A DNA stretch of 64,000 nucleotides from Escherichia coli (GCF_024298765.1 NZ_CP101211.1); one strand, 5' to 3'. Shown: positions 1,289 to 61,214, counted from the stretch's first letter. Made by a program: numbers and translations. The notes: generated from the letters alone by a model not told the origin.

Positions 1289-1300
1289 AAAGTTACTTTT
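1289..1300. promoter_or_regulatory. AAAGTTACTTTT palindrome copy (candidate operator)
   Basis: exact palindromic core flanked by GG..CC; upstream of 841..1125. Confidence 0.5.
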
Positions 1301-1481
1301 CCGTAATAGTTAATTTCAGATCCTTCTTCCAGTTACGCTTCAGTATAAAACCGATACCCTCTAATTCAGCATCCTTCACGTTTAATACGCTTCACTTTAA
1401 GGCAGGGCTTTTCGGTTGATATGAATTCTTTTTCCGGTTGCTGGACATGGGTTTCATCCTGATAGTTAAAATTGCAGGCTA

Positions 1482-1784
1482 TCAGTCACCACCACCACCT
1501 CCTCCTCCTCCTCCTCCACCGCCACCATCACAACCACCAGCTATGCTATTTTCACCATTACAATCACCTCCGAGGGGGTTCAAATGGCTGCTCCCCTGTA
1601 GATGGTGTCCTTGCCAGATCGAACCCGAACCAGCGCCTCCTGAGCGTCTTTGCTTGCCCTGAGGCAATTGTGCAGGCTCACCAGCACCGGCGGTCCCAAA
1701 AATGTCCCGGGCAATTTTATAAAGAAGGTAAAAAGGTACGCCCAGCATCATAAAAAAGATTACTGAAAATATTACACGTTCCAT
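1482..1784 (-). CDS. small membrane protein with C-terminal poly-Gly tract
   Basis: N-terminal TM segment; C-terminus GGCDGGGGGGGGGGGGGGD encoded by a (GGN)n trinucleotide repeat at about 1485-1540. Confidence 0.4.
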   Translation of the reverse strand: MERVIFSVIFFMMLGVPFYLLYKIARDIFGTAGAGEPAQLPQGKQRRSGGAGSGSIWQGHHLQGSSHLNPLGGDCNGENSIAGGCDGGGGGGGGGGGGGD

Positions 1785-2216
1785 TGATGATCTCCTGTCT
1801 TGTGAGAGACCAGTTATATCAGGGTGATTCAGTATTTCCGTTTAGAAAAGAGTACTAATTTGGCCCTGTTCGATCTTAATTTGCCATCCGGGAAAAAGTC
1901 ATAGGGATAGGCCTGCCAGAGTCAATAACTTCCAGTGATCTGGAGGAGACCCCGGCTCTCTGAGCCCTCATGGATGGTACGGCTTTACCCCCTGTAAACA
2001 GATTCACGTTCCGCAGGACAAACATCGACTACTGACGTCTCATATTTGCTGACGCTAATCCGACGTCTCATTGCCGTCTGCTTGTTTTCTTTAAAGGGTG
2101 TATTAGACGAATATCAAATCGGAATGGTAGGGGATGTGTGGGCACCATGCCCGGCCCTCTTTGAGCATCTGAGAGATTGGAGACCTAGCCGGGTAAGATA
2201 GCTACTTTCTTACGGG

Positions 2217-2585
2217 TTACCCTTCAAATCCAAAGACGAAACGGACGCTGCCGTTCTCCACGTGGAGACGCTTTACTTCTTCGACAAATTCCTGGATCAC
2301 CTCTCCGGCGTTATCGGGTGGTATGGCTGACAAAATTTCTTCCGAAGTCAGCCATGAGTATGAATGTTCACCGAATAAATCATCATCTTCGGACGGTATA
2401 TCATCAGGTAATCCGCGTAATGCGTGGATAAAAACTGCTGATGTGCTCGCCCTTTCACGATCTACATCAAATCCGAGCCAGGCAAAGTGGAGATATGATC
2501 GGTCCCCTTTATAATTGCTTGATAAATTAATCCATTTACCAGGCTTTTCTTCCCTTTGAAATCGCCAGCAGATATCAACGCCCAT
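2217..2585 (-). CDS. hypothetical protein (122 aa)
   Basis: ORF in co-directional gene string; acidic, no recognised domain. Confidence 0.45.
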   Translation of the reverse strand: MGVDICWRFQREEKPGKWINLSSNYKGDRSYLHFAWLGFDVDRERASTSAVFIHALRGLPDDIPSEDDDLFGEHSYSWLTSEEILSAIPPDNAGEVIQEFVEEVKRLHVENGSVRFVFGFEG

Positions 2586-2749
2586 TAAGAAACTCCATTA
2601 CTATCGTTCGTATGAGATAACTATCATTTCAGAATACTATGACTTCTTCCCGTATAGAACTAATCGCTCACGCCAACTGGGCGAAGCCAACCGGTTCCGC
2701 CACTTCGCTCATTGGTTTTTAGGCGTAAGCACTGAAGCCAGTCTCCATG

Positions 2750-3292
2750 CTAACTGGCGAGCCTGCGAAAGTCAGACTCGTTGTTATAAAGCGGCATATC
2801 GTAAGCGGTGTCTGAAATGAACATGCGGATCTGCTCAAGCGTCATGCCACAATGAAAACGGTTTACGCTCACATTGGCCCGGGGGAAGTCAGCACAAAAC
2901 GCATTCAAAACATTTTCATGGACAATGCCAATGTTGATCAACGCAGCTGGCCCGTTGTCACGGAAGGATACGACACGGAATCCCCCATACCAGCCTGAAT
3001 GGGAGAAAAATGAAAATGCGCCGGATGCCAGACCATTAGACAGGTCATAGCGCAATTTCCCGCACAGAGACTGGCTGTCTTTGCTGTACACGCGATTAAT
3101 GAAAATACCGGGACCAACTTCTACCGGCTGCTTGTTGCTTGCTAAACACGGAAAGCCCACCAGCGAAACCTCCCTTTCTCCTGACCAGTTTACCTGATAC
3201 CCGGCAGTGAGAAAGTCCGTCAGTTCTACGCCAGAAAGAGCATTAATGGCCGCGATATCGGTAGTCAAAATATTTACGTTTTTCATATTCAT
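2750..3292 (-). CDS. hypothetical protein (180 aa)
   Basis: ORF in co-directional operon. Confidence 0.5.
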   Translation of the reverse strand: MNMKNVNILTTDIAAINALSGVELTDFLTAGYQVNWSGEREVSLVGFPCLASNKQPVEVGPGIFINRVYSKDSQSLCGKLRYDLSNGLASGAFSFFSHSGWYGGFRVVSFRDNGPAALINIGIVHENVLNAFCADFPRANVSVNRFHCGMTLEQIRMFISDTAYDMPLYNNESDFRRLAS

Positions 3293-3353
3293 CTCATCTT
3301 TATTCTAAAGTGCGTTTTTTGTCTATCAGCCCGAGGATTGAAAATTTGAATAT

Positions 3354-3791: not shown

Positions 3792-3835
3792 GAGATATCT
3801 CCTGCCCCTCCGCTATACGAAGGGGCTTGATAGGG

Positions 3836-4132: not shown

Positions 4133-4175
4133 AATACCTCCTGTTTAGAAGTATTATATGTAAACAGCCTCAGCG

Positions 4176-5062: not shown

Positions 5063-6247
5063 TCATGACTGTCCCTTGTTCATCTTATCAGCATGCTTAC
5101 GCAGGTACTCTTTCAGGTCAGCATGAGCGTTGATGATATCGTTCATTTCATCATTGGTCAGAACAAGCGTGTAAGTATCAGTACTGACAGATTCACCTTC
5201 TTTAAGCTTGGCTTCTTCAGCAATACGTTCAAAAATCGGGATCGCGGTGTCTGCAATGACGGTCACAGTCTTTTTGTTCAGAACGCTGGACATGGAAGGT
5301 GCTTTACCTGCCGGGTTCTGTTTAGGAGCGCTGTCCTTTGGAGCTGGAGCCGGTTCCTGTACCGGTGGCGTATCCAGCGTCTCCGTATTGCTTTCATCGT
5401 TCAGTTGATCCGGTACCGGGGTGTTATCGGTAGTATCATCTGCCGGTTGCTCAGCACCGATGTTTTCCGGAGTCTGCGGATCTGCCATGCGCTCTTCTAC
5501 CTTGGCAGCTTTGACGAATTTCAGCGTGTTTTTCGTCGCCTTGCCATAGATGGAGATCGCTTTGTTGATGTTATCTACCGCATCCTCACCGCTGTACATA
5601 TACTCGTCCAGTGCAACGTACATGCTCACCTGATCGCTCACAAGCATGGTCTGTAGTTCAGAAGGCAGGTCCAGTACGCGAACCATCTGGCGAAGATGCT
5701 GCTCTGATTTACCACGTTTTTTTGCCAGTTCCGCAAAGGTCTTAGGCTCTTCTTTATCTTCAACCAGACGCTTAATTGAAAGCGCTTCAGCTACGACAGA
5801 CAGCGCCAGGTTGGAGTTGCCGGTCAGGGTGAAGAGTTCTGCTTTTGAAGCGCTACCGCGAAACTCTTCGCAGCGAATACGAGTAATGCGTTCACGCCCT
5901 TCTGCTTCCAGCTGGCGGTTTGCAATAGCGATGGAACGGATACGGCAAGCCCCCTGACGCAGTACAGGTACGCCATTAACCATCTGAACAACGATAGGCG
6001 TCACGCTGAACGGGTCTTCCATGTAGGCATCGGCCAGGCTGTTCAGGTGTTCCACAACGTGAGGCATTGAATAGTAGAGCTCGCCCATACCGGCCGTGCG
6101 GGTGTTAAAGCCTTCCTGCTCTACAACAACCGAAGGGTCAATGATAAGGCCGTTGCCTTTACGGGCACCGTTACCAGTGCGTTCCAGGTAACCACGAAGG
6201 CTGATTTCGTTGCTGTTGTTTTTTACTTCAGTTTCGATTGCGGACAT
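5063..6247 (-). CDS. ParB-like nuclease domain protein (394 aa)
   Basis: ParB/Srx-type N-terminal box (GVPVLRQGACRIRS, compare paralog VRQGHCRLK at 58095..59258); Pro/Asp-rich acidic linker; two palindrome copies upstream. Confidence 0.75.
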   Translation of the reverse strand: MSAIETEVKNNSNEISLRGYLERTGNGARKGNGLIIDPSVVVEQEGFNTRTAGMGELYYSMPHVVEHLNSLADAYMEDPFSVTPIVVQMVNGVPVLRQGACRIRSIAIANRQLEAEGRERITRIRCEEFRGSASKAELFTLTGNSNLALSVVAEALSIKRLVEDKEEPKTFAELAKKRGKSEQHLRQMVRVLDLPSELQTMLVSDQVSMYVALDEYMYSGEDAVDNINKAISIYGKATKNTLKFVKAAKVEERMADPQTPENIGAEQPADDTTDNTPVPDQLNDESNTETLDTPPVQEPAPAPKDSAPKQNPAGKAPSMSSVLNKKTVTVIADTAIPIFERIAEEAKLKEGESVSTDTYTLVLTNDEMNDIINAHADLKEYLRKHADKMNKGQS

Positions 6248-6335: not shown

Positions 6336-6350
6336 AAAAAGTAACTTTTT
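6336..6350. promoter_or_regulatory. AAAAAGTAACTTTTT palindrome copy
   Basis: exact palindrome ~90 bp upstream of ParB-like start. Confidence 0.5.
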
Positions 6351-6462: not shown

Positions 6463-6475
6463 AAAAGTTACTTTT
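6463..6475. promoter_or_regulatory. AAAAGTTACTTTT palindrome copy
   Basis: second copy ~215 bp upstream of ParB-like start, with the extended form ...AGAAAAGTTACTTTTCCGG. Confidence 0.5.
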
Positions 6476-14039: not shown

Positions 14040-14240
14040 TTATAAGAGGAGTACTGGCAAAGCTTTGCCAAGTACTTCGGCGGTTGTGTCTACGATTTTA
14101 CGGATGTCATCGATCTGCGAAGGCTTATTCAACACCACCGTAAAAAGCTCTCCTTCGTTATCAGCCTGCTCGCAGTTTCCGTATCGGCTCCCGTCGTACA
14201 GCTGCACAATACGTGACATAGAAGACTTTGTTTGTTTCAT
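14040..14240 (-). CDS. small protein, distant member of the PMTLNDLS paralog family
   Basis: weak similarity to 14280..14504. Confidence 0.35.
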   Translation of the reverse strand: MKQTKSSMSRIVQLYDGSRYGNCEQADNEGELFTVVLNKPSQIDDIRKIVDTTAEVLGKALPVLLL

Positions 14241-14279: not shown

Positions 14280-14504
14280 TCAGAAGCTGGTTTCATGCGC
14301 TTCCGGCTGGGACACGAACTGGTATTTGACGCCGCCAGGCACACCTACTGCTTCGGCAATAGAGTCGCAAAGCCGCGATAAATCATTTAGTGTCATCGGA
14401 TATTCAATATCTACAGAATATAAAGCACCTGCATTTTCAGCATCTTCGATGTTTTTATACTGGGCACTAAATATAGCAATGGTCTGAATTTCGTGGTTAT
14501 GCAT
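14280..14504 (-). CDS. small conserved protein (PMTLNDLS...AVGxPGGxKY family)
   Basis: clear paralog of 20246..20485. Confidence 0.5.
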   Translation of the reverse strand: MHNHEIQTIAIFSAQYKNIEDAENAGALYSVDIEYPMTLNDLSRLCDSIAEAVGVPGGVKYQFVSQPEAHETSF

Positions 14505-14558: not shown

Positions 14559-14762
14559 TTAAATCTGTGAAGTATTTTTGAGAGATTTTTTGCGATCCAG
14601 ATGCCGGGCAACAATGGTTCCGATAACAAGTAGCATGATGACCGCACTGAAGAAGGTGCTGTCAGGGACGCCCTGGAAAAAATCACTGAAACTGTAAACA
14701 ATAAAAATCAATGCGCAAAAATAGAAAACGATACGAACATAAGGGGTAAAAAACATTTTCAT
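14559..14762 (-). CDS. small membrane protein (67 aa, two TM segments)
   Basis: hydrophobic; first gene after palindrome at 14904. Confidence 0.4.
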   Translation of the reverse strand: MKMFFTPYVRIVFYFCALIFIVYSFSDFFQGVPDSTFFSAVIMLLVIGTIVARHLDRKKSLKNTSQI

Positions 14763-15806: not shown

Positions 15807-16003
15807 AGGCTTACTCTCCCTCTTCAGTGGACAACATCAGATACTTTGTTGCCAGCAGAAGCTCTCCCACATCCTTGAGGGACAATTCAGCTTTGCCTTC
15901 TACGGCAAGCTGCAAGCGCTGTCGAATTGCATGAACAGAATCTGAAGATAAAGATGCCATTTTGCGCAAAACGGCATTAGCCTTTTCTGGTAATGACTCC
16001 AAC

Positions 16004-16507
16004 TTATTGATAGTGTTTTATGTTCAGATAATGCCCGATGACTTTGTCATGCAGCTCCACCGATTTTGAGAACGACAGCGACTTCCGTCCCAGCCTTGCC
16101 AGATGTTGTCTCAGATTCAGATTATGTCGCTCAATGCGCTGAGTGTAACGCTTGCTGATAACGTGCAGCTTTCCCTTCAGGCGTGATTCATACAGCGGCC
16201 AGCCATCCGTCATCCATACCACGACCTCAAAGGCCGACAGCAGGCTCAGAAGACGCTCCAGTGTGGCCAGAGTGCGTTCACCGAAAACGTGCGCCACAAC
16301 TGTCCTCCGTATCCTGTCATACGCGTAAAACAGCCAGCGCTGACGTGATTTAGCACCGACGTAGCCCCACTGTTCGTCCATTTCAGCGCAGACAATCACA
16401 TCACTGCCCGGTTGTATGCGCGAGGTTACCGACTGCGGCCTGAGTTTTTTAAATGGCGGAAAATCGTGTTGAGGCCAACGCCCATAATGCGGGCTGTTGC
16501 CCGGCAT
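16004..16507 (-). CDS. insB: IS1 InsB
   Basis: matches IS1 InsB. Confidence 0.9.
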
Positions 16508-16701
16508 CCAACGCCATTCATGGCCATATCAATGATTTTCTGGTGCGTACCGGGTTGAGAAGCGGTGTAAGTGAACTGCAGTTGCCATGTTTTACGGCAG
16601 TGAGAGCAGAGATAGCGCTGATGTCCGGCGGTGCTTTTGCCGTTACGCACCACCCCGTCAGTAGCTGAACAGGAGGGACAGCTGATAGAAACAGAAGCCA
16701 C
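16426..16701 (-). CDS. insA: IS1 InsA
   Basis: [30 protein letters not shown]... matches IS1 InsA. Confidence 0.9.
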
Positions 16702-17735: not shown

Positions 17736-17886
17736 GAATAGAACCTATACAGTTAGAGAACTGGAGAATGGATAAAGACTCTATGAAAATCAGTTGTGCT
17801 ACACTCGAATGCTAATCAAGCTTTATGATGGCTTTAGTAGGGATGGCCGTCAACTTAAACCGATAAGAAGGGAGCCATTTATCGTT

Positions 17887-17897
17887 AAAGTAACTTT
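17887..17897. promoter_or_regulatory. AAAGTAACTTT palindrome copy
   Basis: ...GTTAAAGTAACTTTCCCGG... Confidence 0.5.
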
Positions 17898-17914
17898 CCC
17901 GGATGATGCTCTTT

Positions 17915-20485: not shown

Positions 20486-20617
20486 TGATGATCCTTTTGT
20501 TTAGTTCCCCGATTCCGGGGGTGAGTGAATTAATTTAAATTTATATTTGTCTGGTTTAATTAGAACGTTTCCAGGCTATGCGTAAACAGGTAATGCAAAG
20601 GCTGTATCAACAGGATT

Positions 20618-20629
20618 AAAGTTACTTTT
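20618..20629. promoter_or_regulatory. AAAGTTACTTTT palindrome copy
   Basis: ~135 bp upstream of 20246..20485. Confidence 0.5.
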
Positions 20630-25665: not shown

Positions 25666-25678
25666 AAAAGTAACTTTT
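25666..25678. promoter_or_regulatory. AAAAGTAACTTTT palindrome copy
   Basis: exact 13-bp palindrome. Confidence 0.5.
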
Positions 25679-29877: not shown

Positions 29878-29890
29878 AAAAGTAACTTTT
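29878..29890. promoter_or_regulatory. AAAAGTAACTTTT palindrome copy
   Basis: exact palindrome ~170 bp upstream of 29331..29708. Confidence 0.5.
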
Positions 29891-32556: not shown

Positions 32557-34947
32557 TTATGTTTGAGGGAATTCTATAGCAAATGTGGCCGTGCCAGATT
32601 GACCACTTACAGCGGGAGTAACGGGATACGTGCGCTCTTCACCATTACCAAGATCCAGTGACAGCGATTTAGTTTCACCAGGCTGGACCGTAACTCCGGC
32701 AACCGTAACGCCGAACTGGGCATTTTTCTGAACAGTCAGGGTTCCGTTTAACTGTCCGGTAATGATAGAACCGTCCTGACGCCGCAACACACTGGTTCGG
32801 ATGATGGCCAGCGGCGTGTTGTCCGTTGCTTTCAGTGCTACGGCTGTGGCCAGCGTCTTGAGATTATCCAGCATAATCAGATTCGCAGGCTGGTAGGTAA
32901 AATTAAGCGTTTTAGTGGTCCGGTTACCTGATTCGTCAATAGCCAGTGCCTCCAGATGATACATCTGTCCCGATTCGTCAGTGTTGGGGAAGATTCTGGG
33001 GTATTCCGGAATAAAGACATCCTTGGATAACGGCGTGAATGCCAGGGTGACCTTTTCAGAGTTAGGTCCACCAGCGAGCTGAAGCGATGTCAGGGAAGCA
33101 TCCCCAGAGGCATCAGTAACGCTTATGCGAAGGTTCTCAAGCCCTTTAACCAGTTTTCCTTCTGCGTCTGCGCCATTAAAACTGAACGCGATAACCGGAA
33201 GCGTTGAGTCAATTTTCAGCGGTGCATTAAGCGTTTTGGTTCCGGTGTTTCCAACAAGATCCGTGGCAGAGACGCTAACCACCGTATAATCCCCGTCCGG
33301 TAGACCAGCGTATGAGAAGGTGGCGTTTTTGGTTTTATAATCGCTTTCACTGACGGTCACAGGCTTCAGCGTGAAAGGTTCCCCCCGGGCATTTTTAAGG
33401 GTGGCTTCGAAAACTTTGGTATCCCAGTAGCTGATGTTCCAGGCGTTGACGCGATCATTATCGGTGGCCGTCATAGTGATTGTCTTGGAGGCCTTGTTTA
33501 CCTGAGCGACATTAACCACCGGTGGGTTGTTATCCCAGATAACCGTAAAATTACCAGCAAGCGCATCGAATATGCTGTCACCATCTTTTCCCGAGTAAAG
33601 GTGCAGATACTCAAATCCTTTGTCACTGGTGTAGTTGAAGTTAACCGTCATCTCGCATGAACTTTGTCCGATAGGTATAGTGCAGAACCAGGCTGCATTT
33701 TTTACCGTTCTGAACTTTTGCACGTATGGTCGGGGTTCAGCGGTTACCTTTATGCGGCTAATGGTGGCGGTTTTAACGCTGATTGAGGCCTGAGTTAACC
33801 ACTCACTGGTATCACTCCGGTACATCTCTTTAGCCACTATCTTCGGGGCTATTTCCATCGCCGGGGCTGGAGTGAAGTTGAGGGAGTTATGATGAATTCG
33901 TCTTACTCCTCCTGCCAGAGTCTGGAATTCATGATAAGTATCCCCCACATTGGGATATATGTATTTGAAAGTATAAATATTATAAGTGCTATCGGACGTC
34001 TGGAAATTCGAGTCCGCCCAGCCATATTTGGAACCGTTAACAGCAGTAAAGTCACTTTTTTTCCTTAATACCCGTACGGAAATAGGGTTCTGGAAGACGG
34101 TCATGCCAGACTGATAAGTGACCCATGATCCGGTAGTGGCGTCCTGCACCTGGATGATATCGTCAGGCTTAACCCGATCAATTACGCTTCGGCGGCTTAG
34201 TTCGATCCTGTTTCCCGCTTTGTCATAAAGGTAGATCCCCACTTTATATTCAGAGCGGTTTTCCGGTGCCAGGGCATTGCTGCTTGCGTCGGCGACTTGA
34301 ACGGTTACGCTACCTTCCACTGTATTAATTTCCGCTGGCTTTTTACGCTCCACTCCAGCGGCATCGGTTATGAAATATTCAGCATTAGCAAGCCCGGAAC
34401 CTTTATCACTCAGTCCATTAAAGACCAGTGCCTGGACGCTGGCGTACTGCATACCGGCTGGTACTGAAGTGAAGATCGCTTCGCTGCCAAAGTTCCACCC
34501 GTTTCTCGTATAACTTATGGTACCCGTTGCCGGAGGCGTTCGGTCAATTGCAAGCGGGTAATCCTGCCGGGAGACCTCCTTCCCTTGCAAGTCGGTAATC
34601 ACCTCTCTGAGGGTGAAGCTATCTTCTCCCATCGCTGGTACGGTCAGAGTCTTGCCGTAATAATCAAAGCCTGTCGAAGATGTGGTACGGTCATCTACGG
34701 TAACCAGGCTGCTTTTCGTGCTCCAGATGAGGCTCCCGTCACTTTTCAGCAGACTGAGCGTAATATAACGGTCCAGACCGGAAATAACGGCAACGTCAAA
34801 GCTCGTTACCGGATTAATCCATACGGATGCAGGCGATACGGTCTTTTTAACGTTCAGGGTATCTTTAAAGCTGAATTCTGCGATTTCAGCGGAAGCTCCT
34901 GCGCTGAAACCTGCAAATGCAATAAGCAGGGCTAGTTTGATTTTCAT
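32557..34947 (-). CDS. secreted Ig-like repeat protein, paralog 1 (~796 aa)
   Basis: Sec signal peptide MKIKLALLIAFAGFSAGASA; repeated D-x-T-P-P domain starts; paralog of 40500..42920 and 48582..51038; start chosen at the internal Met with AGGAGA RBS. Confidence 0.7.
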   Translation of the reverse strand: MKIKLALLIAFAGFSAGASAEIAEFSFKDTLNVKKTVSPASVWINPVTSFDVAVISGLDRYITLSLLKSDGSLIWSTKSSLVTVDDRTTSSTGFDYYGKTLTVPAMGEDSFTLREVITDLQGKEVSRQDYPLAIDRTPPATGTISYTRNGWNFGSEAIFTSVPAGMQYASVQALVFNGLSDKGSGLANAEYFITDAAGVERKKPAEINTVEGSVTVQVADASSNALAPENRSEYKVGIYLYDKAGNRIELSRRSVIDRVKPDDIIQVQDATTGSWVTYQSGMTVFQNPISVRVLRKKSDFTAVNGSKYGWADSNFQTSDSTYNIYTFKYIYPNVGDTYHEFQTLAGGVRRIHHNSLNFTPAPAMEIAPKIVAKEMYRSDTSEWLTQASISVKTATISRIKVTAEPRPYVQKFRTVKNAAWFCTIPIGQSSCEMTVNFNYTSDKGFEYLHLYSGKDGDSIFDALAGNFTVIWDNNPPVVNVAQVNKASKTITMTATDNDRVNAWNISYWDTKVFEATLKNARGEPFTLKPVTVSESDYKTKNATFSYAGLPDGDYTVVSVSATDLVGNTGTKTLNAPLKIDSTLPVIAFSFNGADAEGKLVKGLENLRISVTDASGDASLTSLQLAGGPNSEKVTLAFTPLSKDVFIPEYPRIFPNTDESGQMYHLEALAIDESGNRTTKTLNFTYQPANLIMLDNLKTLATAVALKATDNTPLAIIRTSVLRRQDGSIITGQLNGTLTVQKNAQFGVTVAGVTVQPGETKSLSLDLGNGEERTYPVTPAVSGQSGTATFAIEFPQT

Positions 34948-35081: not shown

Positions 35082-35095
35082 AAAAGTTACTTTTT
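35082..35095. promoter_or_regulatory. AAAAGTTACTTTTT palindrome copy followed by TGATAG
   Basis: ~110 bp upstream of paralog 1; extended match to the copy at 51259. Confidence 0.5.
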
Positions 35096-40499: not shown

Positions 40500-42920
40500 A
40501 TGAAACATCTCGCTTTTATTACTGCTGTAGCCGGACTCGGTATGTCTGTTCAGGCCCCAGCTCAGATATATGAATCGGCCTTTAAGGACACGAACGGTAT
40601 TGAGATCCACGCCCCGTCTTCTCGTCTTATGCTTAATCCGGCATCACCGGTAACTTTGACACTTATTTCAGGTCTTGATCGTTTCGTTAATGTCAAAGTC
40701 ACGAAAGACACTGGAACTGTCATTCTTAATACTACGACTACACGGACGGGTGTATCAGACCGACTAACAGCTGCTGACGGTAGTGAGTTCTACGGCAAAA
40801 AAGTAACTTTGCCTGCTTTGGGTGAAGGCAAATTTGTCGTTCAGATAAACGTGTTAGATCTCAATCAGAAGCCTGTAGCGACCTATAACTATAACTGGCT
40901 AATTGATGTCACCCCTCCAGCGGCAAATGCTCTTACCGCTAATACTGGTTCTGGCTCTACCGCTGGTGACGTGTGGAAGCTTGGATTAGAGGCAACGGGG
41001 CAGTATGACTTCACCTCTTCGGGCGTAAGTGATGCAAATGGTATTGATAAGGGCCTAATATATATTTACAGGCAGGACGGTAGCCTCTACAGCACTACAC
41101 AGATGCAGTATGACGTATCCGGCCAAAAGATGTACCACACTTACTCTAAGAATTCAGTTAAGGGAACCGGAATACCAGACAGCAACCTGGATGAAGACTT
41201 TACTGCAAAAGTTGTTATCTTCGATAACGCAGGTAATAGCCGAACGCTGCCAACTCAAAAATTTCGCTACGACAACACGCTGGGTGAGATGACACTGTGG
41301 GCCGTTCATGATCCAAATACGTCTTCCAGCGTCGTACCCGGGGTTTCTAATTATCCGGCTTACAAAGCCGGTATGGTCGTTAACGAAAACCCTATTCGAT
41401 TAGTCTACCGGATCCCAAAATCTAACTACCGTGCTTATTCAGAAGGTGGGCTTCAGTTCATCAATCAATATTCCGCCCCCAAAGAGATAGCTGTAGACAG
41501 CACTTATGCTTATGTTGAAATGACTCTTCCCTATGGCTCAATTAATGGGGATATGGCTCGTATGGCGAACTTTGGCCAGTGGGGAGGGTATTATCCGTCA
41601 TACAGCCTCGTTCTAAACCCATCTGCAAACCAAACGCCTGCATTTGCGGGTACCTGGGTAGATTTCCTCGATGATAAGGGGAACTGGGTTAAGTGGAAGG
41701 ATTTTGAGAGTGTGGCTTCATCACGACTGCCAATTAAAATTTCCCGACTTCGTTTTAACGTTGAAGCCCGGCCCTTTGCACAGGAGATCGGCGGTAAGGC
41801 GACCTGCACCATTCCGGCAGGAAAAACCTCGTGTGAAGCGCCTGAGACGTTTGATATGGCCTTGGGTACCCAGGGCTACAATAGAATCCTTTACTTCGTT
41901 CGCAGCATCAGCAATCCCATTTTGCGGTCTGAGCAATGGATTATGACACGCTGGAACAATAAACAACTGCCGGTAATAAACTCGATATCATATGACGAGA
42001 CTAACAAGCAGCTGGATGTACTGGCGTCACTTGAAGGCGATGGTAACTGGTTCGACTCGGTCTCATTGAGGGAATTTTATCTTTCCGATAAGAACACCGG
42101 TACCCGGATGTCACCAACAGGCGTAATCAAATCTCGTATCTCAGGTAACTACACGATTGCTTATGATTTATCCCGTCAGTCTGAAGGAAAATACAACGTT
42201 GAGGTCAACATCAGGGACTTCTTCCAGAACCAGACCAATAAAACTTTCGGAGAAATTGCTCTGGATAACACTCCTCCGACAGTGGCCATAACATTCGACG
42301 GAAAGCCGGTAAAAGACGATACGGTAGTGTACGGCCTGGAGAACCTCAGGATCGCTCTGGCAGATAATCTGACAACCCCGAGGATAACCCGTCTTCAGCT
42401 CGTAGGTGGCCCCACAGCTGATAACGTTGAGCTTACGTGGTCACCGGCAGGCAAAGATACATACATGCCTGAGTATCCGAGGCTGTTCCCAAATTTCGAA
42501 CCATCTGAAAATTATTCAATTAGCGTAACAGTTGCCGATAGTCAGTCGAATACCAAAACCTATACTCAGAAGTTCAGTTATCTACCGAATAACCTTGTGC
42601 AGTTACATAATCTACGCACATTGTCGGTCAGTTCACCTCTCAAAACGACAGATGGCGTACCACTTGCGTACCTGTCCACTAACGTTCTGCGTAAGACAAA
42701 TGGAGAAATTGCTAAAGGGGTCCAGAACGCAACGCTGACTGTGCGGAAGGATGCAGCCTTCGGTATTAAATTTAATGGGGCACAGGCGGCTCCAGGCGAG
42801 TCAGTTGAGGTGCAAATAGATATGGGCCAGGGGGATAATCTTCTGTTACCCGTTTATCCTTCCGAAAATGGGAAAGTTGGCACCTCAGAATTCATGATTC
42901 AGATCGACGAGTTGAAGTAA
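40500..42920 (+). CDS. secreted Ig-like repeat protein, paralog 2 (806 aa)
   Basis: signal peptide MKHLAFITAVAGLGMSVQA; D-x-T-P-P domain starts; C-terminus ~55% identical to paralog 3 by eye. Confidence 0.7.
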   Translation: MKHLAFITAVAGLGMSVQAPAQIYESAFKDTNGIEIHAPSSRLMLNPASPVTLTLISGLDRFVNVKVTKDTGTVILNTTTTRTGVSDRLTAADGSEFYGKKVTLPALGEGKFVVQINVLDLNQKPVATYNYNWLIDVTPPAANALTANTGSGSTAGDVWKLGLEATGQYDFTSSGVSDANGIDKGLIYIYRQDGSLYSTTQMQYDVSGQKMYHTYSKNSVKGTGIPDSNLDEDFTAKVVIFDNAGNSRTLPTQKFRYDNTLGEMTLWAVHDPNTSSSVVPGVSNYPAYKAGMVVNENPIRLVYRIPKSNYRAYSEGGLQFINQYSAPKEIAVDSTYAYVEMTLPYGSINGDMARMANFGQWGGYYPSYSLVLNPSANQTPAFAGTWVDFLDDKGNWVKWKDFESVASSRLPIKISRLRFNVEARPFAQEIGGKATCTIPAGKTSCEAPETFDMALGTQGYNRILYFVRSISNPILRSEQWIMTRWNNKQLPVINSISYDETNKQLDVLASLEGDGNWFDSVSLREFYLSDKNTGTRMSPTGVIKSRISGNYTIAYDLSRQSEGKYNVEVNIRDFFQNQTNKTFGEIALDNTPPTVAITFDGKPVKDDTVVYGLENLRIALADNLTTPRITRLQLVGGPTADNVELTWSPAGKDTYMPEYPRLFPNFEPSENYSISVTVADSQSNTKTYTQKFSYLPNNLVQLHNLRTLSVSSPLKTTDGVPLAYLSTNVLRKTNGEIAKGVQNATLTVRKDAAFGIKFNGAQAAPGESVEVQIDMGQGDNLLLPVYPSENGKVGTSEFMIQIDELK

Positions 42921-43022: not shown

Positions 43023-43034
43023 AAAAGTTACTTT
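43023..43034. promoter_or_regulatory. AAAAGTTACTTT palindrome copy (not upstream of a minus-strand gene start)
   Basis: lies 3' of paralog 2 and next to the iteron-like array. Confidence 0.4.
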
Positions 43035-43074
43035 AATCGTACGTTTCCAGCGATGCTTTCAAAAGACAATGCAT

Positions 43075-47599: not shown

Positions 47600-48250
47600 A
47601 CTCATTAAAACTTGGCAAAAACTCTTTGCATACAATGACCTGCAACTCTTATCAACAACGGATCAGATCAAGTTAAAAAGATCTAATGAAAAGTCACTAC
47701 TATTGTCGCTCTGATCACTACTGATGTCAAAAAACTCATTACCAACGTTATAATAATCACTACTAATGTCAAAATAATCACTACTGTTGTCACTGATCAC
47801 GTCTCAGGCCTTGTGCCGTCTGGCCTGGAGGCAGCGGGGATCTCTTTTGATCTATCAGGAACACTAAGGTACTAATTATTGGAACTACCTTGTGGAAAAT
47901 GGGGATAAATAAATGCTTAGTTCTTATACAGGTCTCAACTTGCCTCCCTGATAAAAACTGTCGTCAAAGCTAAATCACAGCCACAGGCATTTTCGGTGGA
48001 TAAATTTTTGAGAAATAGAAGCATACATGCAGACTCGTGTCGCAAGTAATTGAAAGTAATGATTTATTTAAATAATGCGAGTCACCTTACCTCACAGTGG
48101 AAGTTTAAGTCTAACCTCACTACCATTGTCACTTAAAATCATTACCAACGTCGAAATAGTCTCTACCATTGTCTTTTAAGTCACTCCCGTTGTCACTTAT
48201 GTCGCTACTGTTGTCAGTGACAATGCTCCAGCCCAGTAACCATGCGGCCT
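47600..48250. other. putative iteron-type replication origin
   Basis: two sets of ~5 direct iterons (TCACTACYRTTGTCA, ~21-23 bp spacing) at 47693-47800 and 48116-48228; GATC cluster at 47661-47690; AT-rich spacer. Confidence 0.6.
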
Positions 48251-51193: not shown

Positions 51194-51207
51194 AAAAGTA
51201 ACTTTTT
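51194..51207. promoter_or_regulatory. AAAAGTAACTTTTT palindrome copy
   Basis: ~155 bp upstream of paralog 3. Confidence 0.5.
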
Positions 51208-51258: not shown

Positions 51259-51271
51259 AAAAGTAACTTTT
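51259..51271. promoter_or_regulatory. AAAAGTAACTTTT palindrome copy followed by TGATAG
   Basis: ~220 bp upstream of paralog 3. Confidence 0.5.
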
Positions 51272-51410: not shown

Positions 51411-52037
51411 ATGTTATACATGCTCTTATGCTGTTTTCTGATGCTCAACAGTACATTCGTTATGTTCAGAGCAATGTCTGCAATAAGTAAAGGATCCGCT
51501 AAAGAAAACCGGTCTGAAATATCGCTGATAGTCCTAGCAACACTTGGAATCGCATCACCATTCATTGTCGCAATGATTACTATTAATGAAAGTATGACAT
51601 CTAAAACAGTAACAGATTTTTCTTTGGGTGCTCAGTGGTACGGAATGGTTTCAGCGGTAGCGCTAATGGGGTTATATGCTCGACGCGTTTGGAAAGAGAA
51701 GAAGTCCTTATTTACTGGCGCTTTCCTGGCCTCTTCCTTAATGGCCTTTATTTTTACTGACAGCCTTGTTTTCGTATCCCAGAAGGACACCGGCGTTCTG
51801 GCTACTTTCGTACTCGATAAAAACGCTGGAGATATTGATTGTAGTCGCCCGGCTATGATTGTCCATTACAGTAAAGGTGTTCCAACGGACTGGCGTTGCC
51901 CAACCAGTATCATGTTGATGGCGTATTCTTCATATCCTTTTTTACCCTGGCCTGAGTATAGCCATGGTACCAGCCAGTCTCTTACGGTTGTTATTGATAC
52001 ATTTATGGAAAACGCTGTTAATCTCAGCCAAAAATAA
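51411..52037 (+). CDS. integral membrane protein (208 aa)
   Basis: multiple hydrophobic segments; followed by terminator. Confidence 0.5.
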   Translation: MLYMLLCCFLMLNSTFVMFRAMSAISKGSAKENRSEISLIVLATLGIASPFIVAMITINESMTSKTVTDFSLGAQWYGMVSAVALMGLYARRVWKEKKSLFTGAFLASSLMAFIFTDSLVFVSQKDTGVLATFVLDKNAGDIDCSRPAMIVHYSKGVPTDWRCPTSIMLMAYSSYPFLPWPEYSHGTSQSLTVVIDTFMENAVNLSQK

Positions 52038-56155: not shown

Positions 56156-57847
56156 TCATAGGACTTCCTCTTGTTGAATACGTTCGGCGTACAGGATGCG
56201 AACCGAAACGGTCGTGTTTTCAAACTCGTTCTCAAAAACGTCCATCCATTCCGTCCGGAATTCTTCCCCCAAAAGGTTATCGAGCCCCTGAAGAGATAAT
56301 GGAAGAACGGCTGCTAGAGATCCCCCGGCTGCGAGATGAGATGCAGCTGCCTGGAGATGCAGCCTGGCCCGGTTATCGGCAAAAGGTGGGTTCATCACGA
56401 CATAATCAAACTTCTTCTGTTGATTAGACTTAGACCATGTGAGGAAGTCAGCTTCTGTCGTATCGTATCCCTTAGCCCGGGAGATAAGGCAATTCAAAGT
56501 ATCAAGCTCGATGCCAGTAACGATCACACCGGCAGGGAATGATTTAAGCAAATCCGCATGGCCAATATTAGGCTCCAGGAGGGTATCCCCTTCCCCTGCA
56601 CCAAGCAGGGAAGATACATATTCGCTGATTCGGCAAGATGAAGGGTAAAACTGATGCGATACAATATCAGGCATCTCCCCTATCTGGCCGATGTAACGAA
56701 TAACCTCACACGGATCATAGGAAAATGTCACATCGTATTTTGTTACTGTTGCCCCTAAGAACCGAAGGGTGTCAGCGGCAACACTCGAAGATTTGCGTTC
56801 GGCGAGAGACCCTAAAGATGTCCAGCAACTCCATTTATTGTCCCCGTCATTTTTAAACATCAGTTCAGAAAGCTGCATCCGGGTATCAAAGTCGATGCAC
56901 TGCTTAAGTACAGGGAATGCCTCCAAAGATTTCTTGCTATGAGCCATACGGTCGGCAGGTAATGCCAGCGGTACGATAGCTGATAAAATATTGTTAAGCC
57001 GCTCGGCGATATCAGGGTGGACGTCAATATGCATTGATCCATTTTTGTAAACCCTGAAACGAATACTGTTGCCATCGATGCAGATCCATTTTCTGAACCC
57101 CTCATGTTCGACCAACGCCTCAACCAATGATTTGGTGTTATGGATCGCCTTCACCTGTTCGCCACGGAAGAATGCGCATATAACGCGGAGCTCGCTCAGC
57201 GGTGAAATGCCAGACTCTTTAAAATCCACCCTTAATTTCTGCCAGGGGTATTTAGACGGCTCGCAAACTCCGGTAGTGATCATGCGGGTGGAGAACCCAA
57301 AAGCTTTGTTTGTCTTGTGACTGCGGCTCAGAGACTGGAAGACGTCGTAAACCCTTTCTTTAATAAATTGATTGCGGTCATTAAGCAAAGCAACGACTGT
57401 GCCCACTACAGCGTCAGCTGTGAAATCAGGGATCACCTGAGGCGGCATAATATAACGGTCGGCCGTAAACTGCTTATCCCATTCGTTACGTTTGGCATCC
57501 GACATGATAGGCAAAACATCAGTGAGTGCCATAACGCGTTTCCAGTATTCTGATCTCAGAGCGTTTTCTGCGAACAAAGCATCCGCTTCTGAGATGCTGT
57601 GGTTGTAGCCTGAGAGATAAGAATAAAGTTTCTGGTGATTGTGGGTTTTGAACTGGACAGCCATGAGTTTCAACAAGCAGAGTTCATCATTATAGGACTC
57701 AACAAGATCCGCGATAATGCCGAGCTCTTTGCGCATATCTGGAAGAAATGTTTCAGGAGAGCTAACCACCAGGCTATGAGAGGTTGTTAAAGCCAGTACG
57801 CTGTGACCTGCATTATCGGGTTTAGCTTCAGAATCAAGAGATGACAT
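56156..57847 (-). CDS. orphan DNA methyltransferase with large N-terminal domain (563 aa, NPPF motif)
   Basis: C-terminal VVMNPPF catalytic motif; N-terminal ~400 aa unassigned. Confidence 0.65.
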   Translation of the reverse strand: MSSLDSEAKPDNAGHSVLALTTSHSLVVSSPETFLPDMRKELGIIADLVESYNDELCLLKLMAVQFKTHNHQKLYSYLSGYNHSISEADALFAENALRSEYWKRVMALTDVLPIMSDAKRNEWDKQFTADRYIMPPQVIPDFTADAVVGTVVALLNDRNQFIKERVYDVFQSLSRSHKTNKAFGFSTRMITTGVCEPSKYPWQKLRVDFKESGISPLSELRVICAFFRGEQVKAIHNTKSLVEALVEHEGFRKWICIDGNSIRFRVYKNGSMHIDVHPDIAERLNNILSAIVPLALPADRMAHSKKSLEAFPVLKQCIDFDTRMQLSELMFKNDGDNKWSCWTSLGSLAERKSSSVAADTLRFLGATVTKYDVTFSYDPCEVIRYIGQIGEMPDIVSHQFYPSSCRISEYVSSLLGAGEGDTLLEPNIGHADLLKSFPAGVIVTGIELDTLNCLISRAKGYDTTEADFLTWSKSNQQKKFDYVVMNPPFADNRARLHLQAAASHLAAGGSLAAVLPLSLQGLDNLLGEEFRTEWMDVFENEFENTTVSVRILYAERIQQEEVL

Positions 57848-58094: not shown

Positions 58095-59258
58095 TTATTC
58101 TGCGTCCGGCTGTGGGTCAGTATCCTGATCGGTCTCTTCCCCTGCCTTCTTAGCATTTTTTTTACGTGGGTATTTTGGCTTCTCACCATTAAGTTTTGCC
58201 TGACGATTCTCCGCACGGCGAAGCTGCTTGTTCTCTGATTCTGTGATCTCTTTTGAAAGATTTCTCAACATCTCCAGAGTACTGCGGTTCAACGTAATGT
58301 TGATTTCTTCGTCAGCACTTGAATCTGTCAGCTCCGGCAATTCAATATCCCCCAGTTTCTGTAATAAGCTGGTGGTGATGAGTTTGACGCCTTCTACGGC
58401 TTTTGTGGCAATAACCGGCGGAATCCGTGCTGGCTTGAAGTCTGAAGGTCTGACTCGTACCTGACCATGTTGGGTTTTTTTCACCGTGATGCCATTCGCA
58501 TCGGCCTGCTCAAGTTCTGCGATCATCTTCTTGATACGTGAAATTGCTTCTGTTTCGCCGAGCTCATCGATCAGTGAAAGCACGTTAACATACGAAATAG
58601 CGTCAGCATGAATCCATTTCTTGATAACAACAGAACAGGTTGTCAGGCGGATAAGAGAACTGATGGTCGTCGGGCTTTTATTTTCACGTTGAGCAATTCG
58701 TTCGAGTGACCAGCCAGCAAGAGAATGTAGGCGACGATAGGACTCGCCAAGCGCAACAGGAGAAAGCGCAAGACCACGGTTACCATCAATGGTCGCGAGC
58801 TCACAGCCAATTTCATCTTCTTTAATCTCAACGCAAAGGATTGTGATGTCATGATCTTCATCACATGCCATCATTGCGGCTTTTAAACGGCAGTGCCCCT
58901 GGCGAACAAAAGGTACCCCATCAATGACACGTACTCGGATAGGGTCTACATAGTCACCTCGAATGTAGGCATTCTTGATGTTGTAGATGTGTTCTTCAAC
59001 CTCAGGGAGCTTATAGTAATCGTCACCCATTCCCATTTCGCGGGAGTTGAAGCCTGGCGTGACCTGAATTACTGAAGGGTGGATAGCCCATGCTTTCTGG
59101 TCACTTACTTCAGTACAAAGTTCAGGGTTTGCATCACGGAACTGTTTAAGCCCAGTGACGTAACGGCCTGTGCCAGTAACTACTGAAAAGGCAACATGGG
59201 CCGTTTTAAAGACCTTGTCATTAGCTTGCTGTGTAGGTTCTGTCAGTAAAACACTCAT
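58095..59258 (-). CDS. ParB-like nuclease domain protein (387 aa)
   Basis: GVPFVRQGHCRLKAA ParB box; paralog of 5063..6247. Confidence 0.75.
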   Translation of the reverse strand: MSVLLTEPTQQANDKVFKTAHVAFSVVTGTGRYVTGLKQFRDANPELCTEVSDQKAWAIHPSVIQVTPGFNSREMGMGDDYYKLPEVEEHIYNIKNAYIRGDYVDPIRVRVIDGVPFVRQGHCRLKAAMMACDEDHDITILCVEIKEDEIGCELATIDGNRGLALSPVALGESYRRLHSLAGWSLERIAQRENKSPTTISSLIRLTTCSVVIKKWIHADAISYVNVLSLIDELGETEAISRIKKMIAELEQADANGITVKKTQHGQVRVRPSDFKPARIPPVIATKAVEGVKLITTSLLQKLGDIELPELTDSSADEEINITLNRSTLEMLRNLSKEITESENKQLRRAENRQAKLNGEKPKYPRKKNAKKAGEETDQDTDPQPDAE

Positions 59259-59334
59259 AGGGGCTCCGTTACATTTTTCTGCTTACTTTCTGCGTAGCGG
59301 GGATACTACCGAAAAAAAAATTCATAATTTTTCG

Positions 59335-59350
59335 CAAAAAAGGTACTTTT
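59335..59350. promoter_or_regulatory. degenerate palindrome variant AAAAAGGTACTTTTT
   Basis: one extra G relative to the core; ~80 bp upstream of ParB-like start. Confidence 0.3.
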
Positions 59351-59606
59351 TGAGCCTATTCTGATTTTTTACAAAAAAAGGTGGCTCCCCATTACTTGTG
59401 ATGGCATAAAAATCGCTTCATAAACAAATACATAAATCCAAAACATAAAGTTCAGGTATAAGTGAGGAAAAATCTTATAAATCCGAAATGCTGAAAGTCA
59501 AAACTGTGCGTCTTAAACAACTTTTTTTTGCTCCCTAAGTTATTAGTTAAAGCCCGTGGTTAGGTACGATACCAGCACCTAAATTTCTCTCTCAGGTATA
59601 GACACT

Positions 59607-60440
59607 TTGACTCGACATCTCAGACACATGCCGATAATCAAATGGGCTGGTGGAAAAACGAAACTGATGCCTTTCATCAGCCATCACTACCCACACGATC
59701 ATAGTTGCCGGTGGGTAGAACCCTTTATAGGCGGTGGTGCCGTTTTTCTGAACATGTTTGCACAAAATGCATTGCTTGCAGATAGCAATCCAGACTTGAT
59801 CAACCTATACAGGACTATTCAAAGACAGAAAACTAACTTTATAAATCAGGTCCAAAACTTGGCGGATAAAACCTTTGTCGAAAAGGACTACTATGAGATG
59901 AGGGACCGTTTCAACAAAACCTGTATTTCTGGTCAATCGCTTCAAAGAGCGGCTTTGTTTTACTCCCTGAATCGCCTGGGCTATAACGGTATGTGCCGCT
60001 ATAACTCAGAAAGAATCTATTCAGTGCCGTGGGGGAAACATACAGAACTGAAGCTTGACCTCAATAAAATAGACTACCTTTCATTTCGTCTTTCAGGTAT
60101 TGAACTGATCACCGCTGGTTTTGAGGAGACTCTGGCCGCAACCGGTGAAGGAGATCAGATTTACTGTGATCCGCCATATGACAAAACAAGCAAAACTAGT
60201 TTTGTCAGTTACGATGGTAAACCGTTCAGCCAAAGCGACCACGTGCTGTTAGCAAATATGCTCGTTGACGCTCACAGAAAAGGCGCTGCTGTTGCGATAT
60301 CAAATAGCCTGACATCATTCACTTTGGGCCTCTATGAAGAGCGTGGATTCGTCATACACAGACTCAGCGCTTACCGATCCGTAGGAAGTAAGCCGAATAC
60401 ACGGAAAACGGAAACAGAAATACTGGCCGTGCTGAAATAG
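59607..60440 (+). CDS. Dam-family N6-adenine DNA methyltransferase (orphan)
   Basis: IKWAGGK N-terminal motif, EPF.GGGAVFLN, NRLGYNGMCRYN and DPPY catalytic motif as in E. coli Dam; true start may be the ATG at 59628. Confidence 0.85.
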   Translation: MTRHLRHMPIIKWAGGKTKLMPFISHHYPHDHSCRWVEPFIGGGAVFLNMFAQNALLADSNPDLINLYRTIQRQKTNFINQVQNLADKTFVEKDYYEMRDRFNKTCISGQSLQRAALFYSLNRLGYNGMCRYNSERIYSVPWGKHTELKLDLNKIDYLSFRLSGIELITAGFEETLAATGEGDQIYCDPPYDKTSKTSFVSYDGKPFSQSDHVLLANMLVDAHRKGAAVAISNSLTSFTLGLYEERGFVIHRLSAYRSVGSKPNTRKTETEILAVLK

Positions 60441-60448
60441 AGTAAATT

Positions 60449-61114
60449 CTAATCAACTGGGCTAATCCATTCCTCAAAAGTTAATACCTCAGGGTAAGTT
60501 CGTTGAACATAAGGTATAAACTGAAGCTCTTCTATTCTCCGGTCGCCCCTCTTTCCTTCGCAAATAAATGAAATGAGTCCTTGCTGAGAAAGGCCAGTAA
60601 GGACGCTCATAAGTCTTATATTTAGACTTTTAAGCTGTAAGTCGTTATTAATGTCCTCCACTTTATGAGAGCTCTGGCCTGAACGTTTAAGATACTCGTA
60701 AACCATGAAATTCGAATTTCGTCGTTTTAACAATTTTTCGGTTATGCATTCCTGAATGAAGTCGCCAAGAGCATCTAAAAGCGGACTGAGAACTACCGGG
60801 AAAGTTAATGTGTAACTTTGAGAAGTTTTAGACAAAGTGAATGAGTTTAGAAAGCTAAAGTTTAGTCTCTTTTTTGAATATGGAACATAAGCGACAAGAG
60901 TAGTCGACATAACAGTAAGTAAAGCTTCAAGATGGTTCACTGTTATTAAAGTGGCTTTATCTGTATTTCTAAGATTATGGAAATCAATAAACGCTACTCT
61001 TGAACGGCTAAGCCAATCTTGTACTTTAATGTCGATAGAAAATTGCGAGATATGATTTGAACATTCATTTTGGGTGATAGGGCATGCAGACGAAAGATGG
61101 TTATGGATTATCAT
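60449..61114 (-). CDS. hypothetical protein (start placed at internal Met so that the palindrome is upstream)
   Basis: long ORF 60449..61306; upstream palindrome at 61202 suggests the shorter start; start uncertain. Confidence 0.35.
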   Translation of the reverse strand: MIIHNHLSSACPITQNECSNHISQFSIDIKVQDWLSRSRVAFIDFHNLRNTDKATLITVNHLEALLTVMSTTLVAYVPYSKKRLNFSFLNSFTLSKTSQSYTLTFPVVLSPLLDALGDFIQECITEKLLKRRNSNFMVYEYLKRSGQSSHKVEDINNDLQLKSLNIRLMSVLTGLSQQGLISFICEGKRGDRRIEELQFIPYVQRTYPEVLTFEEWISPVD

Positions 61115-61201
61115 GCATAGCACAAAAAAAGGAAAACGGCAGGCTGTGGGGCATTGAAAACCGGTTAAAGAAAGCTTAGACGTTTCATATGCGCTTACCG
61201 G

Positions 61202-61214
61202 AAAAGTAACTTTT
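61202..61214. promoter_or_regulatory. AAAAGTAACTTTT palindrome copy
   Basis: CCGGAAAAGTAACTTTTC. Confidence 0.45.

Follow-up and report, generated by a model that had tools for sequence, protein, structure and literature searches.

Genomic context and sites of the palindrome

The DNA analysed here, a window of 64,000 nucleotides from Escherichia coli (NZ_CP101211.1), belongs to the backbone of an IncHI2 plasmid, and the element in question is a 13-bp palindrome, AAAAGTWACTTTT, that recurs along it. By megablast, 20 kb of the window was 100% identical to many IncHI2 plasmids, and its counterpart is the last 63.2 kb of the Enterobacter hormaechei plasmid pG17-1 (NZ_CP079936.1; 264,084 bp, IncHI2A, with a MOBH relaxase and MPF_F). 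The Tra1 relaxase operon ends just before the window start. Besides the replication gene, three ParB-like genes (P1, P2 and P3) and three genes encoding immunoglobulin-like (Ig-like) proteins, the window holds a long series of function-unassigned small genes on the minus strand. Gene positions were taken from the RefSeq gene table mapped onto the window, which gave a coding fraction of 0.736. The genes referred to most often below are as follows.

5063..6247, minus strand: P1, orphan ParB-like protein of 394 amino acids (WP_001272970.1), with HTH_ParB and a G99-A-C-R102-I-R-S box; top candidate binder of the palindrome
58095..59258, minus strand: P2, ParB-like paralog of 387 amino acids; alternative candidate binder
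62469..63524, minus strand: P3, ParB-like paralog of 351 amino acids; alternative candidate binder
32557-34947, minus strand: Ig-like gene, one of three paralogs of ~800 amino acids with 29-41% identity
40500-42920, plus strand: Ig-like gene, second paralog
48582-51038, minus strand: Ig-like gene, third paralog
46386-47474: repHI2

Eight exact copies of AAAAGTWACTTTT were detected in the window, against 0.00 expected from 100 dinucleotide shuffles, and at no more than one mismatch the count was 13, against 0.10 expected and a shuffle maximum of 2. The palindrome reported in a preliminary description of this DNA is, therefore, real and far above chance, and the positions given there were accurate to 1-3 bases. 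Its core is AAAGTWACTTT, with an outer base that is A and sometimes G; this 11-bp core, AAAGTNACTTT, is both the commonest palindrome and the commonest 11-mer of the window, with the RepHI2 iterons ranking behind. The sites in the window are listed below.

1288..1300: copy GAAAGTTACTTTT, 1 mismatch, intergenic; centre 169 bp upstream of the minus-strand gene 841-1125
6337..6349: exact copy, proximal to P1; centre 96 bp upstream of it and kept in the IncHI1 and Yersinia upstream regions
6463..6475: exact copy, distal; centre 222 bp upstream of P1
14902..14914: copy GAAAGTTACTTTC, 2 outermost-base mismatches and an intact core; centre 146 bp upstream of gene 14559-14762; the positional counterpart in IncHI1 is an exact copy
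17886..17898: copy TAAAGTAACTTTC, 2 outermost-base mismatches and an intact core; centre 157 bp upstream of gene 17415-17735
20617..20629: copy TAAAGTTACTTTT, 1 mismatch, between a PAPS-reductase-family gene and gene 20246-20485; the matching gap in IncHI1 holds an exact copy
25666..25678: exact copy; centre 212 bp upstream of gene 25134-25460
29878..29890: exact copy; centre 176 bp upstream of gene 29331-29708 and ~124 bp upstream of the best predicted -35 element
34047..34059: weak copy TAAAGTCACTTTT, 2 mismatches, centre C, within Ig-like gene 32557-34947
35082..35094: exact copy; centre 141 bp upstream of Ig-like gene 32557-34947
40799..40811: copy AAAAGTAACTTTG, 1 mismatch, within the plus-strand Ig-like gene 40500-42920; kept in IncHI1
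43023..43035: copy AAAAGTTACTTTA, 1 mismatch, intergenic, following the plus-strand Ig-like gene after ~100 bp
51194..51206: exact copy, flanked by two divergent genes, Ig-like gene 48582-51038 (minus strand) and gene 51411-52037 (plus strand)
51259..51271: exact copy, 65 bp from the copy at 51194, with a predicted promoter between the two
59338..59350: variant AAAAGGTACTTTT, 1 mismatch; centre 86 bp upstream of P2, with the identical variant at the same place in IncHI1
61202..61214: exact copy within the coding sequence 60449-61303, where it encodes RKVTFP; kept in IncHI1

Eleven of the 13 sites at no more than one mismatch are intergenic (binomial P = 1.9e-5), and the distance from the centre of an intergenic site to the minus-strand start codon downstream of it is 86-227 bp. 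Motif density is not equal in the two kinds of DNA, being several-fold higher in intergenic than in coding DNA, yet the intragenic copies are too numerous to dismiss. The preliminary description had counted 13 sites, all intergenic, 12 of them upstream of minus-strand genes. The upstream majority held, the count being 11 of 13, or 12 of 14 with site 59338, while several details had to be revised: the intragenic copies at 40799 and 34047 (the latter with two mismatches and a central C) had been overlooked, site 61202 lies inside a real coding sequence whose N-terminus is conserved between IncHI1 and IncHI2 rather than upstream of a gene, and site 43023 lies downstream of a plus-strand Ig-like gene. 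The symmetric CCGG flank described for several copies is not symmetric, as there is just a weak G/C preference directly outside the 13-mer and no longer common repeat. Two of the Ig-like genes have upstream copies (35082; 51194 and 51259) and two have an internal copy (34047; 40799).

Distribution over the plasmid and its relatives

A search of the whole replicon and of related plasmids, as proposed in the preliminary description, extended the pattern well past the window. The complete pG17-1 (264 kb) carries 20 exact copies, 43 copies at no more than one mismatch and 50 copies of the 11-bp core, against ~0.4 core copies expected. All of them lie within backbone DNA, and no copy was found in the ~60 kb of resistance and insertion sequence (IS) DNA of this plasmid. 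About half of the copies at no more than one mismatch are intragenic according to a hand classification against the annotation. These include copies at the starts of htdO, trhU and trhH, in htdF, rsp, trhR and a VWA gene, two each in trhI and traD, and further ones in a tus-like gene and two ter-region genes. Other copies occupy the gap between trhR and mobI, which holds the origin of transfer (oriT), the DNA after the RepB-family rep gene and the region upstream of the trhA operon.

Among the relatives, 22 core copies were detected in 72.6 kb of the IncHI1 plasmid pHCM1 and 49 in 140 kb of a Klebsiella MOBH/MPF_F plasmid, whose accessory 90-127 kb region contained none; plasmids of Yersinia intermedia and of the Leclercia type contain the motif as well. 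Two dense clusters were seen in the Klebsiella plasmid:

L008:17999-18760: six exact copies upstream of the P1 ortholog
L008:1161-2430: one exact copy and four one-mismatch copies just downstream of a RepB-family replication gene, interleaved with different iterons

The motif is a feature of the whole plasmid backbone and not of the minus-strand operons of this window.

A mobile or extended repeat was looked for in the surroundings of the copies. In 240-bp contexts, conservation is confined to ~17 bp, and no copy was found inside the IS elements of the window or at their ends. Because the contexts share nothing past ~17 bp, the motif belongs neither to a longer repeat nor to an IS end, and a miniature inverted-repeat transposable element or a repetitive extragenic palindrome is likewise ruled out; the known-repeat or IS-end origin that the preliminary description had named as a counter-explanation found no support. 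Some intragenic copies do encode signal-peptide-like KKLLL (in trhH and trhU), as would be expected if the motif were an artefact of KKLLL or KVTF peptides. However, all reading frames are used, the window copies are mostly non-coding, no exact copy appeared in the shuffles, and the copies have no extended homology around them and lie in no IS element. Chance, a coding artefact or a mobile repeat is refuted by the shuffles, the ~17-bp contexts and the conservation across plasmids, and we give this group of explanations virtually no credence.

Conservation of the sites

Comparison of IncHI2 with IncHI1 showed that all nine nucleotide-alignable sites are conserved, with an identity of 0.97 in the motif versus 0.70 in the 300-bp flanks. 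In traD and trhH, where third-position identity is 42% overall, every synonymous position under the motif is kept, and the sole change under these motifs is an A to T substitution at the central W, which preserves the consensus. Gaps that are too diverged for alignment still hold a copy in both IncHI1 and IncHI2; such same-gap copies adjoin the PAPS-reductase-family gene, follow the rep gene and precede htdT and the Ig-like gene. Two departures from the consensus are conserved as well. The variant AAAAGGTACTTTT upstream of P2 is kept in IncHI2 (59338-59350) and IncHI1 (L016:35398-35410), and the centre-G variant AAAAGTGACTTTT upstream of trhA is kept in both. The conservation of AAAAGGTACTTTT at P2 suggests a site of deliberately different affinity or one specific to a paralog.

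Because orthologous positions are conserved while the flanking DNA is only 70% identical, the motif is very likely a binding site for a dimeric protein: a short stand-alone palindrome under strong DNA-level selection, as expected of such a site. The operator for a dimeric protein proposed in the preliminary description is supported to this extent, as a short palindrome conserved at orthologous positions, while its scope shifts from a regulon of minus-strand operons to the entire backbone.

The same properties bear on whether a dedicated plasmid protein is needed. The motif is AT-rich, with A4 and T4 tracts, the IncHI genes are known targets of H-NS and Hha (PMC7366339), and the plasmids carry their own H-NS and Hha, so that bending by the A- and T-tracts might nucleate or bridge these proteins with no dedicated plasmid protein involved. 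However, the core bases G, T, A and C do not vary and the 6-1-6 symmetry is strict, which points to base-specific dimer recognition and not to shape alone. To our knowledge, no enterobacterial factor has such a site, which further counts against a host protein, and we consider an explanation through host proteins or DNA shape very unlikely.

Several orphan methyltransferases are encoded in the window, and the motif might be the target or self-mark of one of them or serve a restriction-like or anti-defence function:

26303-27553: orphan methyltransferase
38285-39046: orphan methyltransferase
59667-60440: Dam-like methyltransferase
56156-57847: DUF4942 protein

Thirteen conserved bases, however, exceed by far what methyltransferase specificity needs, and neither the intergenic bias towards operon heads nor the clusters before particular genes would be expected, which leaves methylation or defence with only the slimmest prospects. 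As a separate observation, the methyltransferase 38285-39046 and the DUF4942 protein 56156-57847 have in common a domain that is 27% identical.

Centromeres, iterons and similar sequences elsewhere

The Par1 centromere was considered and ruled out, as Par1 has its own 3.5-kb repeat array and there is no palindrome cluster there. This array, outside the window, comprises ~14 copies of a ~250-bp repeat in 3.5 kb of non-coding DNA between trhC and parA (L003:12060-15540 of pG17-1); its conserved core is ATTTAACCCCCTTAATCGCCAAACTGG, and it is probably the centromere or incompatibility region of Par1.

A Rep iteron or Rep-dimer operator was also ruled out for IncHI, since the iterons of the three replicons examined all differ from the motif: the RepHI2 core is ACAACGGTAGTGACT, that of the RepB family CATTCATNNAAATGCTTTTG and that of the Klebsiella replicon AAACATTAACCGTCGTACGTTC. 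Eleven copies of an 81-bp repeat lie to one side of RepHI2 and 21-bp iteron-like repeats to the other; these share the core ACAACGGTAGTGACT and its complement and lie in the window as follows:

44995-45897: RepHI2-flanking repeats
47714-47792: RepHI2-flanking repeats
48158-48216: RepHI2-flanking repeats

When species-representative genomes were scanned for pairs of copies separated by 23-53 bp, the hits were four IncHI2-bearing Enterobacteriaceae and 14 contigs of other phyla. The contigs hold tandem repeats of 19-22 bp or 52 bp that have the identical 13-mer as their core. Arrays with the 19-22-bp period occur in Prevotella (8 contigs), Halothece, Brachyspira and Methanosarcina, and the 52-bp period in a Lachnospiraceae contig with ~14 copies. 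The Prevotella arrays adjoin a primase-helicase gene, and the Halothece array adjoins a RepE/RepM-like initiator and a RelE/antitoxin pair. Examples among the loci L018-L034 are:

L023:2942-2998, array
L024:6546-6602, array
L031:1049-1124, array
L018:1-1100, array
L022:3109-3340, array
L034:2679-2770, array

The arrays in other phyla look like unrelated plasmid iterons that share AAAAGTWACTTTT. They are tandem, whereas the IncHI copies are single and dispersed. Because the same 13-mer serves in unrelated iteron-like arrays, the binder is not identifiable from sequence alone.

ParB-like proteins as candidate binders

P1, P2 and P3 share 26-32% pairwise identity and match PHROG 1033, 'ParB-like partition protein'. 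P1 has the Pfam domain HTH_ParB, with a helix-turn-helix (HTH), and its sequence matches the DNA-binding domain of Caulobacter ParB. In the family profile, its GACRIRS segment aligns to the GERRLRA box of Helicobacter pylori ParB/Spo0J, which corresponds to the GxxRxxA phosphate-binding motif. The AlphaFold model of P1 has a predicted local distance difference test score above 90 over most of residues 21-250, and its best match in the PDB is KorB of RK2 (8qa9, E = 2.6e-8, template-modelling score 0.66 on the target), the next matches being ParB-CTPgammaS, Noc and Spo0J. P1-P3 are genuine ParB-family proteins, and no ParA gene neighbours any of the three.

The motif lies upstream of P1 orthologs in all five lineages in which these were compared: IncHI2, IncHI1 and Leclercia have two copies each, Yersinia has one, and Klebsiella has six in a stretch of 870 bp. 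In the P1 upstream region of Yersinia, the motif is the only alignable block. A distant homologue, P0036 (34% identity in a whole-protein alignment), is preceded by a degenerate copy at 111 bp and has an exact one in its vicinity, and P2-type homologues on other MOBH/MPF_F plasmids have a copy 0-130 bp upstream. For P3, no copy was found in the 476 bp of upstream sequence that lie within the window. The covariation of recognition helix and motif in distant homologues is only partly informative: P0036 keeps the motif, P0046 is without it and the P2-type homologues have it. A pattern built from the P1 alignment found no match in species-representative genomes, the pattern being too narrow. Judged from their sequences, the ParB-like genes are, as a class, tied to the motif, with P1 and P2 inseparable in this respect.

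The preliminary description had named ribbon-helix-helix (RHH)-like paralogs as a second set of candidate binders. These were rejected, as no DNA-binding domain was detectable: neither the small paralog family (14040-14240, 14280-14504 and 20246-20485; 66-79 amino acids, no recognizable domain of any kind) nor the first genes downstream of the sites gave a DNA-binding match in Pfam or PHROG, and the latter are not mutually paralogous. Its other candidates, the ParB-like proteins, gained from the HTH_ParB domain, the GxxRxxA box, the top structural match to KorB and the upstream motif copies, while their role as the binder is argued by analogy.

In a microarray study of R27, two 'partition protein' open reading frames outside the par modules (R0042 and R0153) were up 2.7-2.9-fold at 25 C (PMC7366339, Table 1); these may correspond to the ParB-like paralogs.

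Proposed function and alternatives

A simple sigma-70 scan revealed no fixed spacing of the sites to predicted promoters and no overlap with them. Relative to the sites, the best -35 candidates are 40-125 bp downstream, and a predicted promoter lies between two copies at 51194/51259 only. With sites off the predicted promoters at variable spacing, an operator that works by the usual promoter occlusion is unlikely. The positions agree better with action at a distance, which is probable because the sites are 40-125 bp or more upstream of the likely promoters or intragenic.

We propose that AAAAGTWACTTTT is a conserved protein-binding site of the IncHI/MOBH-MPF_F superfamily, bound by an orphan ParB/KorB-like plasmid protein that would act as a plasmid-wide regulator, a reading to which we give about an even chance. 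Of the possible readings, the analogy with KorB has the best support, because P1 combines a ParB HTH and a GxxRxxA box with KorB as its top structural match, and because the motif lies upstream of ParB-like genes. P1 would be the first-choice binder, with P2 and P3 as alternatives, and a dimer would recognize the palindrome through its ParB-type HTH. The protein would act at a distance and not by occluding RNA polymerase, by one of two routes: a KorB-like repression, in which a clamp loads in a manner dependent on cytidine triphosphate (CTP) and then slides to promoters, or a VirB-like relief of H-NS/Hha silencing. The outcome would be a coordinated expression of the small-gene operons, the Ig-like genes, the tra operons, the oriT region and the ParB-like genes themselves. 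Binding by a ParB-like protein, the use of CTP with sliding, and the direction of regulation are all suggested by analogy with these systems.

Several observations weigh against this proposal. The link between motif and ParB-like protein is drawn from proximity, family resemblance and analogy, and proximity is weak evidence because many other genes also have upstream copies. Autoregulation cannot single out one paralog, because copies precede both P1-type and P2-type genes. The recognition helix differs somewhat between IncHI2 P1 (KSEQHLRQ) and Klebsiella P1 (VSVTHVRK), which have the same motif, and no motif was found near the His-type homologue P0046 (locus L037). Among the neighbouring small proteins, no KorA-like protein was detected, CTP use by P1 is suggested by a single conserved box, and no constant geometry of sites and predicted promoters was seen.

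The presence of copies around transfer genes raises the alternative that the motif is the operator of another plasmid regulator, such as TrhR/TrhY, HtdA, the Tra2 'transcriptional regulator' or an unrecognized small protein, with the ParB-like genes as members of its regulon. TrhR, TrhY and HtdA control the IncHI tra operons, and a binding site is not reported there (PMC7366339). Exact copies are found 76 bp before the trhR-position gene and within the mobI/oriT gap. Further copies precede the trhA operon and htdT or directly follow the Tra2 'transcriptional regulator' gene, and closeness to the motif is not peculiar to the ParB-like genes. However, most copies are near non-tra genes or intragenic, far past the tra regulon, and there is no copy upstream of htdA. 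The small proteins tested have no detectable DNA-binding domain, and the biggest clusters lie upstream of P1 (six, in Klebsiella) and by the replication gene, not at tra promoters. An operator of this kind is, on these grounds, unlikely, with a probability that is still appreciable.

The abundance of intragenic copies suggests another alternative, in which a ParB-like protein binds for a physical purpose, that is, to organize, condense, segregate or protect the plasmid, for example on cell entry, with secondary effects on expression. About half of the copies lie mid-gene (traD, trhI, the tus-like gene and a ter gene), where promoter control is not obvious; the clusters by the replication gene and upstream of P1 resemble centromeres, and the scattered parS sites of IncC serve partition (PMC10954446). 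Nevertheless, no ParA gene adjoins P1-P3, two partition modules are already present on the plasmid, of which Par1 has its own 3.5-kb array, and the window sites are strongly biased to the intergenic heads of transcription units (P = 2e-5). We regard a mainly physical role as distinctly improbable.

The proposal of an orphan ParB/KorB-like regulator can be taken further. Orphan CTP-dependent ParB-like clamps may form a global layer, loading at the ~50 sites, including those in the tra genes and at oriT, and sliding from there to silence genes or to counteract H-NS/Hha. We advance this extension tentatively and hold it to be somewhat doubtful; if true, the layer would link establishment genes, Ig-like surface proteins and thermoregulated conjugation. 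Labour might also be divided among the three paralogs, for example through the conserved variant AAAAGGTACTTTT at P2.

Other features of the window

The sole structural difference between the window and pG17-1 is an IS1 insertion of 768 bp, the aligned blocks being 99.996-100% identical:

15989-16756: IS1, with a 9-bp target duplication, splitting a DUF957 gene

A second palindrome, GTTATC-N3-GATAAC, has three copies in the window (13569, 33529 and 41214), two of which lie inside Ig-like paralogs, so that shared ancestry may account for them. According to a published report, conjugation requires related Ig-like proteins of R27 (PMC6764697).

Implications

IncHI1, IncHI2 and the related megaplasmids of Klebsiella are major vehicles of resistance to multiple drugs, colistin (mcr) and carbapenems, and their regulation is partly known through H-NS/Hha, HtdA and TrhR/TrhY. 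The ~50 conserved 13-bp sites offer a cheap experimental handle on what may be a master regulatory or organizing system, and the motif provides a simple sequence marker for the backbone of this plasmid superfamily. In the literature searched, which left most subscription-journal papers outside, we found no description of the motif or of a ParB-like regulator in IncHI plasmids, and a prior mention is possible.

Comparison with known systems

The operator of KorB, OB, is a perfect 6-1-6 palindrome, TTTAGCSGCTAAA, whose sites fall into promoter-adjacent ones, ones 80-190 bp away and promoter-remote or intragenic ones. The distal and intragenic classes are clear in IncHI, where the promoters are predicted only. 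KorB with its 12 OB sites on RK2/RP4 is a precedent for scattered palindromes of a ParB-family protein (PMC11790492), and these 12 operators are palindromic and 13 bp long (PMC10954446). Both systems have a 13-bp 6-1-6 palindrome dispersed over the backbone, a ParB-family protein (a candidate one in IncHI) and one or more sites at the regulator's own operon; KorB has an N-terminal CTPase fold and an HTH, and P1 is, in its predicted structure, closest to KorB. They differ in the sequence of the site and in number, with ~50 IncHI sites versus 12 OB sites. Moreover, KorB is the ParB of a ParA/ParB partition operon (IncC/KorB), whereas the IncHI candidates are three orphan paralogs for which no KorA-like clamp-locking partner or co-repressor was found.

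The ParB of IncC/IncA plasmids (KorB domain, parAB053) has 14 scattered palindromic parS sites proven by electrophoretic mobility-shift assay (PMC10954446). These are related MOBH conjugative plasmids and, as in IncHI, the sites are scattered over the backbone, mostly intergenic and in some cases beside regulated promoters. In an IncC plasmid, we located four copies of this parS palindrome, CTTTCACATGTGAAAG, in 24.6 kb (L010:1647, 4983, 16027 and 19442), one of them just upstream of parA. The motif differs from that of IncHI, and so does the setting: the IncC binder is the partition ParB, whereas in IncHI the Par1 ParB has its own array and the candidates are separate orphans.

VirB of the Shigella virulence plasmid and BisD of ICEclc are orphan ParB-like, CTP-dependent regulators (PMC10770331, PMC12409273, PMC12704722). 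They resemble the candidates proposed here in being orphan members of the ParB family on mobile elements, with palindromes that lie upstream of promoters without overlapping them and with action at a distance. VirB-type traits are present in IncHI, namely orphan ParB-like genes and sites that are upstream and distal, as judged from predicted promoters, and VirB counteracts H-NS, which also silences IncHI genes. The difference is one of scale, as VirB and BisD each activate a specific regulon from a small number of sites, whereas IncHI has dozens, some of them intragenic. If the proposed reading is true, the IncHI system would be a large natural addition to the few distance-acting regulators of the ParB family, KorB, VirB and BisD.

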